Part shown: in pieces, positions 2,876 through 45,257 of the stretch
Numbering within the stretch: the first letter of the stretch is position 1
How the letters are laid out: each line of letters opens with the position of its first letter
DNA from: a virus
Taxonomy: Duplodnaviria; Caudoviricetes
Virus record (IMG/VR): IMGVR_UViG_3300017991_000120
Coordinates: 1-59,822 of that record
Strand: one strand, 5' to 3'
DNA length: 59,822 nt
Made by a program: the position numbers and the translations under genes
Notes under the pieces: generated by a model
The model's input: only the letters and a program-made list of their open reading frames with translations
What the model was told of the DNA's origin: nothing
Database searches by the model: none

Positions 2876-3274
2876 ATGGGTGCACCTAAACAGTACAAGT
2901 CTGCCGAGGTAATGGAAGCAATTGATGGAAGTGGCGGTATCATGTCTACCGTTGCCAGTAGATTAAAGTGTGATTGGCATACGGCCAAGAAATACACTGA
3001 AAAATGGGAGATGACAAAAATCGCATTGGCAAATGAAAAGGAGTTGGTGTTAGACCTTTGTGAAGGTGTCCTTTTACGCTCTATTCGTGGTGGAGATACA
3101 TCAGATGCGAAATGGTACTTGTCAACGAAAGGCCGATCACGGGGATTTGGTGCCCGGACCACCCTTGACCTCGAGGTTGATGACGTCAAGATTACGGAGA
3201 TTGAAGTTGACGTTGATCCCAATGAGGAGGATCGACTTTCAAAAATAAGGGAAGAAAATCCCGGTTTGGAGTAA
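2876..3274 (+). CDS. terS: terminase small subunit (putative)
   Basis: HTH-like N-terminus, 'AKWYLSTKGRSRGF' segment, position immediately upstream of TerL. Confidence 0.65.
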   Translation: MGAPKQYKSAEVMEAIDGSGGIMSTVASRLKCDWHTAKKYTEKWEMTKIALANEKELVLDLCEGVLLRSIRGGDTSDAKWYLSTKGRSRGFGARTTLDLEVDDVKITEIEVDVDPNEEDRLSKIREENPGLE

Positions 3275-6044: not shown

Positions 6045-7172
6045 ATGAGTTTAAGAGAAGCGAGCATTCGGTACGGTTTGATTCCACCGCCCGACGCGGA
6101 ACTGGCTTGTGGGTGTGGACAGGATCATTCAAAATTAGGTCATTCCCATTGGGACGAAATGAGCATTGGTCCTTTGATTGGGAAAGTGGATGCTCCAAGT
6201 ATTACGGAATTAGAATTATCGGCCCGCCCTCACCGGTGGGCTTCTATGCGTAAACTGCAAAGTGACTTCTTTAAAAATAGCATCCAATTGGTCACTGATG
6301 CAGAGGAAAACATTTTGGAGGTTCTGGACTTGCCCGATATTGATCGGATAAGACGTGCGGAACTTTTAAATGATACAACAGAGGAAGGGAAAAATTGGGA
6401 TTATACTTATGATATGAAAGTCAAATATCGTAAGGCTATTGAGGAATGGCAATTCCGTTTTCTCGGTGATCCTGTTTTGCAGAAACAGCCGGATGTTGAT
6501 TATGAGGACAGTCAAAAACAAGCTGTCTATACCTTCCACATGCTTTCGGCCGTTGGGGTTGGTGCTAAGAATTATAGCCGGATATTCAAAAAGAACCTGC
6601 CGAGCGGAATTGATCCCGCCTTAATTGACAACATTCAAATCCTTCCCACATTAGACAATCCATATTTACAAGCCCTCCATCGCAATGGACTTCTTCGCGT
6701 CAAAAGAAAATATGCGACAAAGTATTATGATTGGGCGCACCTACAATTGGAGCGCATGGCCTACACTGGAACCAATCCCGTACAAGTTGGTCGATGGATT
6801 CATAAAAATGTAGGCGAAGGGCAGGGCTGGTACTGGAACCGCATTACCCGCAGTGAATCAGCTTTGGCAATAAATGTGGTTTATGATCAAATGGCTCGAC
6901 AGGCGAACGTCCTATATGACATGTGGTCAGCAAGTCCTAATGCCTGCCCTATTTGCGGAATGTTTGATGGAAACATGTGGAAGCAAAGCGAGGCTCCTCA
7001 ACCTGTTTCGGATAGTCACCCGCATTGCCTTTGCGTTTTGATACCACAGTGGGTAGATAATGGACGAGAAATCCGGCCTCGTTGGGACAGGGAATCACCA
7101 TACGACCGCCCCTATTCCGGCGAATCAGGGCGCGAGGAACTTCGTAGATTACAAGAATATTTTAATAATTAA
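6045..7172 (+). CDS. MuF/SPP1 gp7-like minor head protein
   Basis: 'RITRSE', 'ACPICGMFDG' and 'HPHCLC' motifs; follows the portal. Confidence 0.75.
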   Translation: MSLREASIRYGLIPPPDAELACGCGQDHSKLGHSHWDEMSIGPLIGKVDAPSITELELSARPHRWASMRKLQSDFFKNSIQLVTDAEENILEVLDLPDIDRIRRAELLNDTTEEGKNWDYTYDMKVKYRKAIEEWQFRFLGDPVLQKQPDVDYEDSQKQAVYTFHMLSAVGVGAKNYSRIFKKNLPSGIDPALIDNIQILPTLDNPYLQALHRNGLLRVKRKYATKYYDWAHLQLERMAYTGTNPVQVGRWIHKNVGEGQGWYWNRITRSESALAINVVYDQMARQANVLYDMWSASPNACPICGMFDGNMWKQSEAPQPVSDSHPHCLCVLIPQWVDNGREIRPRWDRESPYDRPYSGESGREELRRLQEYFNN

Positions 7173-38488: not shown

Positions 38489-38821
38489 GTGGATAAGGTG
38501 GTTGAGCAATTATTTAAACATGACGCCGCGACATGGGCATTGGCATTGATTTTAATCACTGCGGTAATTGCCTTGATTAGGAACGTGATGATACTTATTT
38601 TCCGAATATCAGATCGGTTTAAGCCACAAGGCCGACCGTGCGATTATTTGGTAAAATTACAAGAACAGGTGGCGAATACAAACGTCACAGTGGCAGAACA
38701 ATTGTCCGAACTGCGAACCAAAGTTGAATTCATTTATAAAGAATTAAATAACGGAATGGGCTTTGCACGTCGGGCGCAATATGAAAGGAAGGCTAAAAAT
38801 GAAAACTCTGATGATCGGTGA
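38489..38821 (+). CDS. holin-like membrane protein (putative)
   Basis: One N-terminal TM segment plus coiled coil at the end of the late operon. Confidence 0.4.
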   Translation: MDKVVEQLFKHDAATWALALILITAVIALIRNVMILIFRISDRFKPQGRPCDYLVKLQEQVANTNVTVAEQLSELRTKVEFIYKELNNGMGFARRAQYERKAKNENSDDR

Positions 38822-39158
38822 ATTCGGTATTCAAAATACCAAGGAGCTTATTAAGTTTGGAGCAACGTTGGCCCACTTGGGTTTTGATTTAAAAAATGGT
38901 TTCCAATTGGATGAGGAAATTCCAAACCTCATTGCCGCCGGAAGTGCTGCCGTTCCCGCCCTCGATGAATTCGATAAAGTCGATGATGAACTCCTCGACC
39001 TTGCACCGGAGGAATTGGAGGGGCTGGTTGCCTATACCGATTCACTTTTGGACGATTTGGACTTCGTCGTTGACGACACCCAAGCCGCCATGTTAGATTT
39101 TATCAACGGCGCGTTGGTCATCACTCGCGGTGCCATGAAATTGAAAAAGAAATCCTAA
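38799..39158 (+). CDS. hypothetical acidic helical protein
   Basis: AAGGAAGG SD then ATG at 38799. Confidence 0.6.
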   Translation: MKTLMIGEFGIQNTKELIKFGATLAHLGFDLKNGFQLDEEIPNLIAAGSAAVPALDEFDKVDDELLDLAPEELEGLVAYTDSLLDDLDFVVDDTQAAMLDFINGALVITRGAMKLKKKS

Positions 39159-39185
39159 GCCACTTCTTGCGGCTTACCTCCAAAA

Positions 39186-39218
39186 GATGGCAGTTCCGAG
39201 GCGAGCGGGACTGCCATC
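39186..39218 (+). terminator. GC-rich hairpin ending the late operon
   Basis: GATGGCAGTTCCG / CGGGACTGCCATC stem; no strong U-tract. Confidence 0.45.
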
Positions 39219-39293
39219 CTGCTAAATTTCTCACACTGATTTTGGTCAAAACTTGTAAAATCCAACAGTTTTTAAACTTTACAAAAAAAGTTC

Positions 39294-39322
39294 TTGCATT
39301 CTCGGTTTTAGTTCCTTATACT
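39294..39322 (+). promoter_or_regulatory. sigma70-type promoter for the RNA-cassette/vWA operon
   Basis: TTGCAT-17 nt-TATACT preceded by AAAAAAAGTTC. Confidence 0.75.
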
Positions 39323-39406
39323 TAATGGCGTTGAAAAACGTGACTTTCATTTCTTGTCGAACGCGAGGCTCTCCGCCGAGCTTCGCGTTTTTAAAACGAA
39401 AAAAAT

Positions 39407-39491
39407 AAGCGAAGGCGTTTTTGGTTGTTATAGAACCCGTTTGTGCAAAAACGCTTGTCCTAAAAAGCAACCGACCTTTACTTCGCTTTTT
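39407..39491 (+). ncRNA. RNA cassette 1: conserved closing stems with a short hairpin insert
   Basis: AAGCGAAG/CTTCGCTT outer stem; GGTTGTT-A-TAG...CTA-AAA-AGCAACC inner stem; 3' T run. Confidence 0.65.
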
Positions 39492-39498
39492 AAAATAT

Positions 39499-39737
39499 AA
39501 AGTATCAAGGCGTGGGCGTTGTTATAGCGTTCGGAGGTTCGAATCCTTCCGTCCCCCCAATTTTTTTCTACGTCAACCCTTCGGGGTCTATCGACCGTCC
39601 AACAGAAAAAAATAGGGGTCGCCGGTTCCCCTGAAACCGGCATTTAACATGGGGGACGTACCCAAGTGGACAAGGGACTGTTTTTAGGAAACAGCAATAG
39701 CATAAAATCGCAACGGCAAAATTCTTGATACTTTTTT
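39499..39737 (+). ncRNA. RNA cassette 2: circularly permuted tRNA-Leu(TAG)-like RNA
   Basis: The 3' half (GGAGG-TTCGAAT-CCTTC-CGTCCCC, 39533-39556) precedes the 5' half (GGGGACG-TA-CCC-AAGTGGACAA-GGG-A-CTGTT-TTTAGGA-AACAG, 39652-39694). Enclosed by AAAGTATCAAG/CTTGATACTTT and CGTTGT/GCAACG. Confidence 0.8.
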
Positions 39738-39745
39738 AAAGACAT

Positions 39746-39901
39746 AAAGCGACGAAAGCGTCACGGTTGTTATAGGTAAGGTTAGAACATTGGTCTCGTA
39801 AACCAAGGGTCGCCGGTTCAACTCCGGTCCACAGACTTCGGTCTGAGGTAGTTCAGTAATAAACTAAAAAACAACCTAAGATTTTTCGGCGCTTTTTTTT
39901 T
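39746..39901 (+). ncRNA. RNA cassette 3: circularly permuted tRNA-Thr(CGT)-like RNA
   Basis: GGTTA-GAAC-A-TTGGT-CTCGTAA-ACCAA-GGGTC-GCCGG-TTCAACT-CCGGT-CCACAGA-c-TTCG-g-TCTGAGG-TA-GTTC-AGT. Enclosed by GGTTGTT/AACAACC and AAAGCG/CGCTTT; long T run follows. Confidence 0.8.
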
Positions 39902-39946
39902 GCCCATAAATAATTGGAACCGCAACATTAATTCACGGAGGTACAA

Positions 39947-41488
39947 ATGAAGGATTTCTTGGAACTCGTCGATTTTGACCAAATGCCTGATTTGTCGAAC
40001 TTCGTTAATTCCTTGCAAAGCATAGCGAGAGCGACGCACCACGAGGATAAAGATGAAGTCGAACAGGCGTTGATTAAACGTCACCAAGAAATGTTCCTTG
40101 CCGACCGAGGCGTCTATACCTTGCTTTTGAGTTTGGCGGGATCAGAAAACCACATCACCACAGGCGTTGGGCTTTTATTCGGTCTACCGGATGAGGGCTT
40201 GAATATGCCAAAGTCTTTGGAGACGTTGATCATCAAGGACTTGCTTAAACGTGTAAAAATCACTCAACTCCTACGGTTTTATGTGGACTTGGCCGATGCC
40301 AAAATTAATAACAACCGCGCGCGAAAAGTGATACTCCGCTCGTTTTTTGATGCTGAGGAAAAAGACTTGACGTGGTGGGCTGTTAAGTACAAAACCAAAC
40401 TTCGCTATATCATGAACCACTTTGTGGGAAATGATCAGATTGGCTATGTTATTTCCATTGCCAAACGGTATGCAACGGAAAGAATGTGTCTCCCCGATGA
40501 TTGGGCAAAGGTTGCACGGTTGCTCTTTATGTCCAAAGAGATCCAAGGGTGGCACTTGGAAACCATCGCATTTATCAACAATGTCAATGGCGTTTATTCT
40601 TCACCACTGTTCCGTGCCTTTCAGGAAGCCAAGCGAGATATTACCAAAGGCGCATCATTGCCGCCGGAGGTATTGGAAGGTATTCGATCCGTTTACCATC
40701 CAAGCGTTCCACATGCCGAGGTTTTAAAGTTGACAGCAAAATCGGCCACAAAACAGCAAACAGTTCGCAAGCAACGGGAATATGAAAAGGCTGGTGTAAA
40801 GGTTGATGCCAATTGGGATTCGATGGCGATGCATGAATTGATCAAAATTGTTTACGAATGGCATAAAGACAAAAAACCACTGCCCGAAGATATTATGACC
40901 GTGCTCCACAACAAGGCAAAAAAAGTTGGTGGTGAGCTTAGCTTCCAAGCTATAAAGGCCGGTATTTTAGTAGACAATTCGTTTAGTGGAAGCGGTGATC
41001 AAGAGACCGCTTTGAACGATCCTATTTCAAAAATACTGTCCTTGCGGTATGCGTTGCAGGAATATTTCCACCAACAAGAAATACCTTTTGTCACGGAGTT
41101 TGTCACACAAGGTCGAAACAATTATGGTCTGCCTGTTGTCGCAGGAGAAACCGATTTGGCAACACCGTTTATTGATTTGGTCTATGAGGATTGTGATGTC
41201 ATTTATGTATTGTCCGATGGACGTGACAATGCTCCTGCAGGACGGCTCCAAGAGGTTATTGGACAGTTAAGGTTAATCAAAAAACTGCCTACTGTTTACC
41301 ATTTCAATCCTGTTACCGGTGGAGAGTCGATTGTTAAGTTGGATAAGGATATTCCTACCGTTGGCTATGCCAAAGCCGAAGGTTTTCAACGGACTGTCTT
41401 TGCAAGTATTTTGGTCGCTGAACCAAAAACAGCATTGGCACAGATTCTCAACGATTACAAGTTATTGGCAGAAAGGAGTTCCAAGTGA
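39947..41488 (+). CDS. alpha-helical + vWA (MIDAS) domain protein, Ro60/TROVE-like architecture
   Basis: C-terminal vWA MIDAS residues LVDNSFS, GETDL, VLSDG; long basic helical N-terminal region (NNNRARKVI, WWAVKYKTKL, LPPEVLEGIRS). TROVE relationship inferred from architecture only. Confidence 0.7.
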   Translation: MKDFLELVDFDQMPDLSNFVNSLQSIARATHHEDKDEVEQALIKRHQEMFLADRGVYTLLLSLAGSENHITTGVGLLFGLPDEGLNMPKSLETLIIKDLLKRVKITQLLRFYVDLADAKINNNRARKVILRSFFDAEEKDLTWWAVKYKTKLRYIMNHFVGNDQIGYVISIAKRYATERMCLPDDWAKVARLLFMSKEIQGWHLETIAFINNVNGVYSSPLFRAFQEAKRDITKGASLPPEVLEGIRSVYHPSVPHAEVLKLTAKSATKQQTVRKQREYEKAGVKVDANWDSMAMHELIKIVYEWHKDKKPLPEDIMTVLHNKAKKVGGELSFQAIKAGILVDNSFSGSGDQETALNDPISKILSLRYALQEYFHQQEIPFVTEFVTQGRNNYGLPVVAGETDLATPFIDLVYEDCDVIYVLSDGRDNAPAGRLQEVIGQLRLIKKLPTVYHFNPVTGGESIVKLDKDIPTVGYAKAEGFQRTVFASILVAEPKTALAQILNDYKLLAERSSK

Positions 41489-45134: not shown

Positions 45135-45152
45135 GTAGTCAAGAAATTTTTA

Positions 45153-45226
45153 GGAACCGTGGCAGAGATGGTCAATGCACCGGACTTTTAATCCGGGTTT
45201 TTTGGGTTCGAGTCCCAACGGTTCCA
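45153..45226 (+). tRNA. tRNA-Lys(TTT)
   Basis: GGAACCG/CGGTTCC acceptor, GCA/TGC D stem, CCGGA-CTTTTAA-TCCGG, TTGGG-TTCGAGT-CCCAA. Confidence 0.9.
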
Positions 45227-45257
45227 CGCGTCCAATATTACCTTTTAAGGAGGCAAT

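Follow-up and report, generated by a model that had tools for sequence, protein, structure and literature searches.

Candidate Y-RNA-like cassettes with tRNA-shaped cargo upstream of a Ro60-like gene in a Caudoviricetes genome

Particles composed of Ro60 and Y RNA are conserved from bacteria to humans, and two questions about them are open: the purpose of the tRNA-like domain of the RNA and that of MIDAS, the protein's metal ion-dependent adhesion site. Chen et al. (2014, PMC4201824) located likely Y RNAs in 254 bacteria and 22 phages, within 4 kb of Ro60 and on its strand. Here we describe a stretch of 59,822 bases, the complete virus record IMGVR_UViG_3300017991_000120 (Duplodnaviria; Caudoviricetes), which will be referred to as the window. 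Positions 39407-39901 hold three cassettes sharing a stem-loop design, the handle, and are followed by a gene encoding a 513-amino acid (aa) protein with a Ro60-like fold. We put the probability at roughly 0.8 that cassettes 1-3 are Y-RNA-like noncoding RNAs of this divergent Ro60-like protein, with the repeated motif being a Ro60-docking module and the variable part its cargo.

Y RNAs are characterized by the sequence GNCGAAN0-1G near the 5′-end and by YUAY ahead of the tRNA-like part. In YrlA the tRNA-like domain has the order V, T, closed acceptor, D, and each species possesses at least one Y RNA with a tRNA-like domain plus a second, plain hairpin Y RNA (PMC4201824). In M. smegmatis, YrlA has an acceptor stem of 7 bp; RNase P cuts the RNA, CCA is then added, and a two-piece RNA remains bound to Ro60 (PMC4201824). 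The accessible text of Wang et al. (2018, bioRxiv 10.1101/312249) likens YrlA to a circularly permuted tRNA whose anticodon stem is prolonged by the Ro60-binding stem. The permuted tRNAs of red algae and some archaea are matured into working tRNAs by a splicing endonuclease and a ligase at a bulge-helix-bulge. Two Y-like RNAs, found by their CGAA motif in a stem-bulge-stem, are located upstream of the Ro60 gene of Thermus phage phiLo. The accessible part of the phiLo paper (PMC12135203) proposes host PNPase as the third component, or effector, of the phiLo particle and describes the role of the Ro60 MIDAS as unclear. We found no literature joining Y RNA, Planctomycetes and Ro60.

The cassettes lie between an open reading frame (ORF) of 131 aa (38763-39158) and that of the 513-aa protein, which begins 50 nt from the end of cassette 3; all are on the plus strand. 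The decamer GTTGTTATAG occurs exactly at 39424, 39518 and 39766, that is, entirely within 39424-39775, and nowhere else on either strand of the window. Dinucleotide shuffles contain 0.05 copies on average and none of 100 contained three or more, in agreement with the threefold repeat claimed in the initial annotation; with one mismatch allowed, the count is not special (four found, 2.91 expected). The six strands quoted in that annotation are all present in the sequence. The 5′ strands of the handle are found at 39411-39433, 39506-39527 and 39754-39775, and the 3′ strands at 39460-39472, 39702-39715 and 39864-39876.

All three cassettes are built in the same order: an outer stem formed by the two cassette ends, an internal loop with GCGU-N3-5 on its 5′ side, an inner stem, an unpaired A, UAG, the cargo, and the return side, which consists of CUA (AUA in cassette 2), an A-rich bulge, the return strands and a T run. 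The motif downstream of the inner stem is an invariant UAUAG. The inner stems of cassettes 1, 2 and 3 are GGUUGUU/AGCAACC, CGUUGU/GCAACG and GGUUGUU/AACAACC, respectively, and the compensatory swap of G-C for C-G previously noticed in the basal pair of the cassette 2 inner stem is confirmed (GGTTGTT/AGCAACC versus CGTTGT/GCAACG). The outer stems are AAGCGAAG/CTTCGCTT, AAAGTATCAAGG/TCTTGATACTTT, and CGAAAG/TTTTCG plus AGCG/CGCT. Their strands vary while pairing is kept, and between cassettes 1 and 2 five positions are altered on both sides; thus the claim of outer stems which differ and yet pair, each with its T run, holds for every cassette. The pairing picture as first drawn is correct for the handle stems but not throughout, since in cassette 2 UAG and AUA pair at two of three positions and are adjoined by a U.C mismatch. 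Outside the handle motif, no sequence is duplicated among the cassettes.

Cassette 1 is the simplest copy. It consists of an 8-bp outer stem which includes CGAA, the internal loop, a 9-bp inner stem, A plus UAG/CUA, and a cargo hairpin of 26 nt measured from TAG to CTA, in line with the "empty" cassette holding about 27 nt that had been described. The predicted fold is -25.9 kcal/mol (z-score -3.56; one of 200 shuffles as good), and its descriptor score of 39.0 is the window maximum, the background reaching 31.9. It carries AGCGAAGG, in which CGAA is included and A replaces the first G of GNCGAAN0-1G. A covariance model built from this single sequence matched cassette 1 itself, its antisense, cassette 3 (expect value (E) 0.038) and, weakly, 6441-6539; cassette 2 and all relatives were missed. 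Just 5′ of cassette 1, at 39361-39395, is a GC-rich hairpin with a trailing T run (AACGCGAGGCUC...GAGCUUCGCGUUUUU), which might serve as a leader or attenuator or be another small RNA.

In cassette 2 the handle occupies the position of the long variable arm of a tRNA-Leu(UAG) body, and slices of the cassette put back into the usual order are called tRNA-Leu(tag) by ARAGORN. The T arm (GGAGG UUCGAAU CCUUC) and the acceptor 3′ strand (CGUCCCC, followed by C, C and A) come first; the second part includes a 3-bp D arm with GG and an anticodon loop of UUUAGGA. The linker which joins the acceptor strands contains two stable hairpins, one of these with a 7-bp stem and a 7-nt loop, and this structure exceeds what a disposable spacer needs. 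Cassette 2 is also the least regular copy, having the U.C mismatch and UCAAGG in place of CGAA, with the partner strand changed to match.

Cassette 3 is opened elsewhere. Its body begins with GG-UUA-GAAC (the 3′ half of the D arm), A, the anticodon arm (loop CUCGUAA) and a GGGUC V loop, and continues with the T arm (loop UUCAACU), an acceptor stem of 8 bp capped by UUCG, UA, and GUUC-AGU (the 5′ half of the D arm). The handle therefore splits the D arm, emerging between tRNA positions 16/17 and 18. The fold of -41.2 kcal/mol is equalled by one of 200 shuffles (z-score -2.56), and the RNAfold centroid pairs GAAC with GUUC as the D stem. The Rfam tRNA model gives 30.0 bits at 39766-39833, from the D 3′ half to the T arm, and the re-ordered slices are recognized by ARAGORN as tRNA-Thr(cgt) over all 73 nt. 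The same wiring is found in another viral locus (L128, 1042-1203), where the D stem is ACUC/GAGU instead of GUUC/GAAC, i.e. with two compensatory changes; the split D arm is thus not peculiar to this phage.

The 513-aa product of the adjacent gene was modelled with AlphaFold2 (predicted local distance difference test (pLDDT) 83.1; predicted template modelling score 0.73). Foldseek comparison of the model with the Protein Data Bank (PDB) returned seven matches at E<=0.001, all to Ro60 chains (9nf8, 9nfa, 9nep, 1yvp, 2i91, 1yvr; probability 1.00) over the full length (about 540 columns), with template modelling (TM) scores of 0.50-0.55. The phiLo Ro60 (PDB 9L5Y) ranks eighth, with an E of 1.2e-3 and TM of 0.45-0.50. 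The MIDAS residues D343, S345, S347, T402 and D424 (DxSxS...T...D) of the vWA domain are kept in 23 aligned homologues. On the basis of the predicted model, the protein is called Ro60-like by fold rather than a TROVE family member. Among 23 aligned members (the protein and 22 homologues) the VWA families of Pfam match weakly, in nine, six and three members. For the protein itself, no Pfam family reaches E<=0.01 (the best, Gag_p24, has an E of 0.13), searches of PDB sequences with the protein and with its profile gave no match, and PHROGs and NCBIfam gave nothing useful. A word-indexed search retrieved 23 homologues, none with a precomputed Pfam domain, while a profile search found 734 representative clusters (50% identity) at E<=1e-3, 402 of these at E<=1e-30. 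One relative is present in the GenBank phage collection, in LR756500.1, an uncultured phage without annotation; scanning metagenomes with the single protein gave none. Because the adjacent protein has the fold of Ro60, whose known partners are RNAs with a stem handle, the handle reading of the initial annotation gains support.

To see whether the design recurs, 43 viral loci (38 unique) encoding relatives of the 513-aa protein were compared. Many of these hold cassettes of the same design with unrelated stem sequences, as judged by eye and by a descriptor script: the outer stem runs up to ..GAGGA and is followed by C-U, a short loop, the inner stem, UACAG, the cargo and the return strands. At descriptor scores of 35 or more, nine instances are found in the 2 kb upstream on the strand of the gene (0.118/kb) and six elsewhere on both strands (0.009/kb). 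RNAalifold, applied to eight relatives' cassettes with unpermuted tRNA-like cargo, returned both handle stems together with the D, anticodon and T arms, with double-sided changes at 18 of 26 pairs. A covariance model derived from these eight (R2) gave 139 matches at E<=1 in the window and the 38 unique viral loci, every one on the strand of the gene. Both handle strands are present in 81 rows, and at least 10 of the 12 handle pairs in 59. These 59 well-paired matches stem from 34 of the 39 sources; 53 lie within 3 kb upstream of the gene, the other six being downstream or further off. In the R2 alignment 93.5% of cells are paired, compared to 60.6% after shuffling and 37-51% when the partner is slid. 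Double-sided changes occur at all four outer and all eight inner handle pairs, where 90.9% and 82.6% of cells, respectively, are paired. Near relatives have UACAG downstream of the inner stem, more distant ones UUCAG, UCCAG, UUUAG or UUCUG, and the window and L128 have UAUAG.

This is also true for cellular genomes. The 53 bacterial and archaeal genome loci yielded 111 R2 matches at E<=0.01, again all on the strand of the gene, and cassettes are located upstream of it in Rhodopirellula, Novipirellula, Stieleria, Roseiconus and Minicystis; Rhodopirellula sp. SM50 has a single cassette at 3061-3179. Covariation in further instances, which had been set in advance as a check, is therefore present in viral as well as bacterial contigs. 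A handle with variable cargo, rather than a plain duplication, is what the recurrence beside protein homologues, the pairing of unrelated stems and the varying cargo argue for. The pattern search that had been proposed (GCGT-N3-4-SGTTGTTATAG over viral contigs) proved uninformative, its matches being those expected by chance. At least 120 single-copy matches were obtained, and relatives of the Ro60-like protein or of ARPP-1 are encoded in none of those 120 loci; chance alone places a 7-bp partner within 300 nt of 84 motif occurrences, the pattern being too short for the viral collection.

The gene pair and a handle-plus-tRNA-like cassette occur together in Rhodopirellula sp. SM50, Novipirellula sp. 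SH528, Stieleria, Roseiconus and Minicystis rosea DSM 24000 (loci L174, L177, L182-L184 and L176). In these cultured Pirellulaceae and Minicystis the cassettes are found a few hundred nucleotides upstream of the gene pair, often beside large tRNA arrays. Within the window, R2 also aligns from end to end (34.5 bits) at 45137-45249, around an ordinary tRNA-Lys (45153-45227) whose flanks may pair weakly; this match is probably just the tRNA-Lys. Table 1 lists the features of the locus and the cargo types seen among the loci compared.

Table 1. Features of the locus in the window, and types of cargo (L numbers denote loci compared, with positions therein)
Feature	Position	Strand	Evidence or remarks
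Cassette 1, "empty" Y-RNA-like hairpin (candidate)	39407..39488	+	Fold, descriptor score, sequence
Cassette 2, handle with circularly permuted tRNA-Leu(UAG)-like body	39499..39734	+	12-bp outer stem; un-permuted ARAGORN call
Cassette 2, cargo part 1: variable-loop remnant, T arm, acceptor 3′ strand	39528..39559	+	Sequence
Cassette 2, linker of about 90 nt joining acceptor 3′ and 5′ strands	39560..39650	+	Sequence, fold
Cassette 2, cargo part 2: G-1, acceptor 5′ GGGGACG, U8, A9, D arm, anticodon arm	39651..39694	+	Sequence
Cassette 3, handle (contains GACGAAAG) with permuted tRNA-Thr(CGU)-like body	39748..39896	+	Fold, Rfam tRNA, ARAGORN
Cassette 3, tRNA-like body	39780..39857	+	Sequence, fold, un-permuted ARAGORN call
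Ro60-like protein, 513 aa, predicted helical-repeat ring and C-terminal vWA	39947..41488	+	AlphaFold2, Foldseek, conserved columns
ARPP-1 protein, 339 aa	41485..42504	+	PF20208, 86.4 bits (cut-off 27)
Empty or short hairpins	cassette 1; L126 1625-1705; L133 3801-3867; L143 3776-3846; L148 (two copies); L121 2491-2571; L146 2067-2169		
Unpermuted tRNA-like body, acceptor stem running into handle	L132, L123, L135, L127, L148, L125, L129, L133, L174		
T-arm-first permutation	cassette 2; L121 2343-2479; L131 2263-2428 and 2683-2834		
D-loop split	cassette 3; L128		

The start of the ARPP-1 gene overlaps the stop of the Ro60-like gene by 4 nt. Its product matches PF20208 over residues 11-236 (E 2.8e-24), and a homologue is found directly downstream of the Ro60-like gene, on the same strand, in all 43 viral loci; none of nine other neighbours in the window is conserved across these. 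Among the bacterial and archaeal genome loci ARPP-1 is downstream in 37 of 53. In the other 16 either the stretch ends soon after the gene or the homologue is distant (E>1e-22). The distant homologues, from cyanobacteria, some Planctomycetota and Myxococcota, show no ARPP-1 downstream (L204, L205, L207, L209-L215) and may represent a separate subclade with another partner.

In the accessible part of Iyer et al. (2022, PMC9503650), ARPP figures as a domain so far uncharacterised, in which a Cys and a Gln are conserved and for which an action on ribose moieties is proposed. The invariant C99, Q17 and Q76 of ARPP-1, and the nearly invariant Q104, agree with this. The ARPP neighbourhoods listed there consist of an ADP-ribosylglycohydrolase (ARG) with a phosphatase, HIRAN, WYL or a deacetylase; Ro60 is not among them, and the Ro60-like/ARPP-1 pairing is accordingly absent from that list. 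We found no literature joining ARPP and Ro60. The structure model of ARPP-1 (pLDDT 86.2) resembles no PDB fold at E<=0.001 among 336 matches with E<=10. A complex model of the Ro60-like protein with ARPP-1 scores 0.67, while the best of three controls scores 0.00; 58 of 80 solved complexes attain that mark, as do 2 of 110 mismatched pairs, but these figures are rough here since our own alignments were used. Separate runs share at least 88% of contacts, with a partner pLDDT of at least 79. The predicted interface comprises the MIDAS face of the Ro60-like protein (345-347, 399-403, 424-433) and residues 15-20, 180-186 and 243-267 of ARPP-1, with conserved A180, E181, F182 and E183 (AEFE) within 180-186. 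ARPP-1 is thus predicted to dock on the vWA MIDAS face of the Ro60-like protein.

From these data a common basal module can be proposed, made up of the stem which closes the 5′ and 3′ ends, the internal loop, the second stem and the invariant UAUAG. By analogy with Y RNAs, this module would be the docking site for the ring protein, by which the cassettes, once transcribed, would be bound. The distal end would be exchangeable cargo: none in cassette 1, and in cassettes 2 and 3 whole permuted tRNA bodies, whose anticodon loops are intact and whose acceptor ends are closed or linked. The particle would then consist of the Ro60-like ring, a Y-like RNA, and ARPP-1 held on the vWA MIDAS face, with the RNA presenting a tRNA-shaped module to a partner or an enzyme.

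Several results weigh against the Y-RNA-like reading. The Rfam YrlA model (RF02553; 69-bit threshold) finds nothing at E<=1 anywhere in the virus record, and the 106 matches above the gathering score in 12 related loci are all plain tRNA, with no YrlA. Pfam TROVE (PF05731; cut-off 23 bits) matches neither the 513-aa protein, nor any of the 23 aligned members at E<=1, nor anything in the six-frame translation of the genome, while the D. radiodurans and B. thetaiotaomicron controls matched. The homology to Ro60 is accordingly drawn from fold, that of a predicted model, at a TM of about 0.5 and a root-mean-square deviation of 8-9 Å. Cassette 2 lacks CGAA, and its fold is no better than that of shuffled sequences (z-score -1.05; 30 of 200). 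A consensus scan of 39100-40000 revealed no sigma-70-like promoter, nor did a terminator scan of the same region call one on the plus strand; TTGCAT-17-TATACT near 39297-39325, noticed by eye, is below the scan threshold and is not claimed as a promoter. Among sequencing runs, the locus is listed for one, a DNA run of a sediment metagenome which may be where the record came from, and for no RNA run. The R2 alignment was fitted to the model structure and its seeds were chosen by a pairing rule, so the pair counts lean towards structure; the strand and position bias of the matches is independent of the choice of seeds. Finally, many modules embedded in the handles of relatives score as excellent tRNAs, and some could be matured into tRNAs.

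The last point leads to the foremost alternative, namely that the cassettes are unusual tRNA precursors from which working tRNAs are released, as from the permuted tRNA genes of some algae and archaea, the handle being a leader-trailer helix which serves only for stabilization or for processing (through RNase III, RNase P, RNase Z or a splicing-like excision). Once un-permuted, cassettes 2 and 3 give complete tRNAs whose anticodon loops are normal, and embedded bodies in the relatives reach 60-69 bits on the Rfam tRNA model, with a maximum of 69.5. The RNase P cut and added CCA of the M. smegmatis YrlA (PMC4201824) and the parallel with permuted pre-tRNAs discussed in the accessible text of Wang et al. 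(2018, bioRxiv 10.1101/312249) are congruent with this, as is ACCA directly after the acceptor 3′ strand in L131, L148 and L129. Cassette 1 and many relatives, on the other hand, have a handle and no tRNA. Permutation at the D loop or variable arm requires both cutting and ligation, for which we found no bacterial pathway described in the sources as far as these were accessible. ARAGORN recognizes 40 tRNAs inside well-paired handles, and 21 of these have an anticodon or body type unfit for decoding (A34 other than ACG, a stop anticodon, a 2-nt anticodon, or Leu, Ser or Tyr identity without the long arm), as opposed to 11 of 85 free tRNAs in the same loci. The Rhodopirellula copy pairs five of seven acceptor positions, and the tight linkage to the Ro60-like gene is left unexplained. 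With anticodons so often unconstrained, mimicry fits these tRNA shapes better than decoding, and we regard the precursor explanation as unlikely.

Two further observations concern the cargo. Cassette arrays reach six copies (L126), and the ACCA is buried inside the RNA in L131 (2263-2428, 2683-2834), L148 (3540-3665) and L129 (2347-2477), which suggests that cutting there would expose a ready-made CCA end. On viral contigs ARAGORN also calls transfer-messenger RNA genes a few kb upstream of the Ro60-like/ARPP-1 pair, in tRNA-rich regions (L134, 420-794; L142, 329-684).

It is less probable still that the handle is a nuclease processing site or an intrinsic terminator between small transcription units, unrelated to the downstream protein. 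Stem/internal-loop/stem hairpins are typical RNase III sites of phages, and every cassette closes with a stem and a T run. The scan for terminators called none on the plus strand, as mentioned above, and UAYAG and the GAGGAC-type loop are kept across distant phages and bacteria specifically beside this gene pair, which argues against a generic terminator. That the repeats act as DNA (iterons, operator sites or leftovers of tandem duplication) is very improbable: three direct copies of the decamer do lie within 350 bp upstream of the operon, but compensatory changes keep RNA pairing, the unrelated stems of relatives have 83-91% of handle cells paired, the 139 and the 111 model matches all fall on a single strand, and no duplication extends beyond the motif.

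Returning to cassettes 1-3 as Y-RNA-like partners of the Ro60-like protein, a more specific and decidedly tentative idea is that the handle is a portable adaptor, which would plug whole tRNA bodies into an enzyme particle of Ro60-like protein and ARPP-1 during conflicts aimed at tRNAs or RNA ends. At least four wirings would exist (unpermuted, opened at the variable arm, opened in the D loop, and none). The particle might be a tRNA-shaped decoy, a sensor or a substrate presenter, with ARPP-1 as the uncharacterised Cys/Gln enzyme on the MIDAS face, and its users might be phages, Planctomycetota and Myxococcota. If true, this would give both the MIDAS site of Ro60 and the tRNA-like domain of Y RNAs their first function. 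Homologous loci in the cultured Rhodopirellula sp. SM50, Novipirellula sp. SH528, Stieleria magnilauensis and Minicystis rosea DSM 24000, which are possible experimental hosts, make both questions testable.

The clade is large, judging by its 734 representative clusters, and has been missed by standard annotation. The survey of Chen et al. began from TROVE-annotated genomes, from which we infer that it would have escaped notice there; surveys keyed to TROVE or YrlA under-count Ro60 systems. The clade shows a clearly modular RNA handle, several topologies of tRNA cargo, with real anticodon loops in the two filled cassettes of the window, and a new, conserved candidate effector, ARPP-1.

Compared to described Y RNAs, the cassettes are likewise located near a Ro60-type gene on the same strand, here and in the 34 of 39 sources. 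The 513-aa protein is, in its predicted model, a ring plus a vWA domain with MIDAS, as in Ro60/TROVE proteins. Paired ends and an internal loop with a CGAA-type motif are seen in cassettes 3 (GACGAAAG) and 1 (AGCGAAGG), with cassette 2 deviating. The YUAY-type motif is represented in the window by UUAU inside GUUGUUAUAG; the handle motif here and in relatives, UAYAG, sets these RNAs apart from YrlA. As with YrlA (RF02553) and other bacterial Y RNAs, the distal domain mimics a tRNA and is permuted with a closed acceptor stem, and a plain hairpin copy is present in the same locus, cassette 1 resembling the short hairpin Y RNAs YrlB and Yrn2 in having no cargo. A contiguous cloverleaf with free acceptor ends is absent, ARAGORN finding no tRNA in 39407-39901 in its native order.

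The arrangement nevertheless differs from that of YrlA. There the handle continues the anticodon stem and no anticodon loop is present, while in cassettes 2 and 3 the anticodon arm is intact. The exit point of the handle is the variable arm for cassette 2, the D loop for cassette 3, and the acceptor stem for those relatives whose body is unpermuted. The order in cassette 2 is T arm, acceptor, D arm and anticodon arm, and in cassette 3 the D arm is split. Like the M. smegmatis YrlA, cassette 2 has an acceptor stem of 7-8 bp whose 3′ strand is followed by C-C-A, with its strands joined by the linker of about 90 nt; owing to this resemblance, processing by RNase P and CCA addition is conceivable for cassette 2, although the handle position and the anticodon arm set it apart. 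Unlike Rsr/Ro60 systems, the protein is undetectable as TROVE, and its gene is paired with that of ARPP-1 rather than lying in an rtcBA-type context.

Phage phiLo (PDB 9L5Y) likewise encodes a Ro60 ring with vWA and has Y-like RNAs directly upstream. In contrast to the cassettes, its RNAs are not described with tRNA bodies and no ARPP-1 partner is mentioned in the accessible part of its report (PMC12135203). As in the permuted tRNA genes of red algae and some archaea, according to the accessible text of Wang et al. (2018), the 3′ half precedes the 5′ half and the acceptor ends are linked. Unlike those genes, for whose route of maturation no counterpart is known in bacteria or phages, the break points here are closed by a conserved Ro60-type handle, and an empty cassette exists beside the filled ones.

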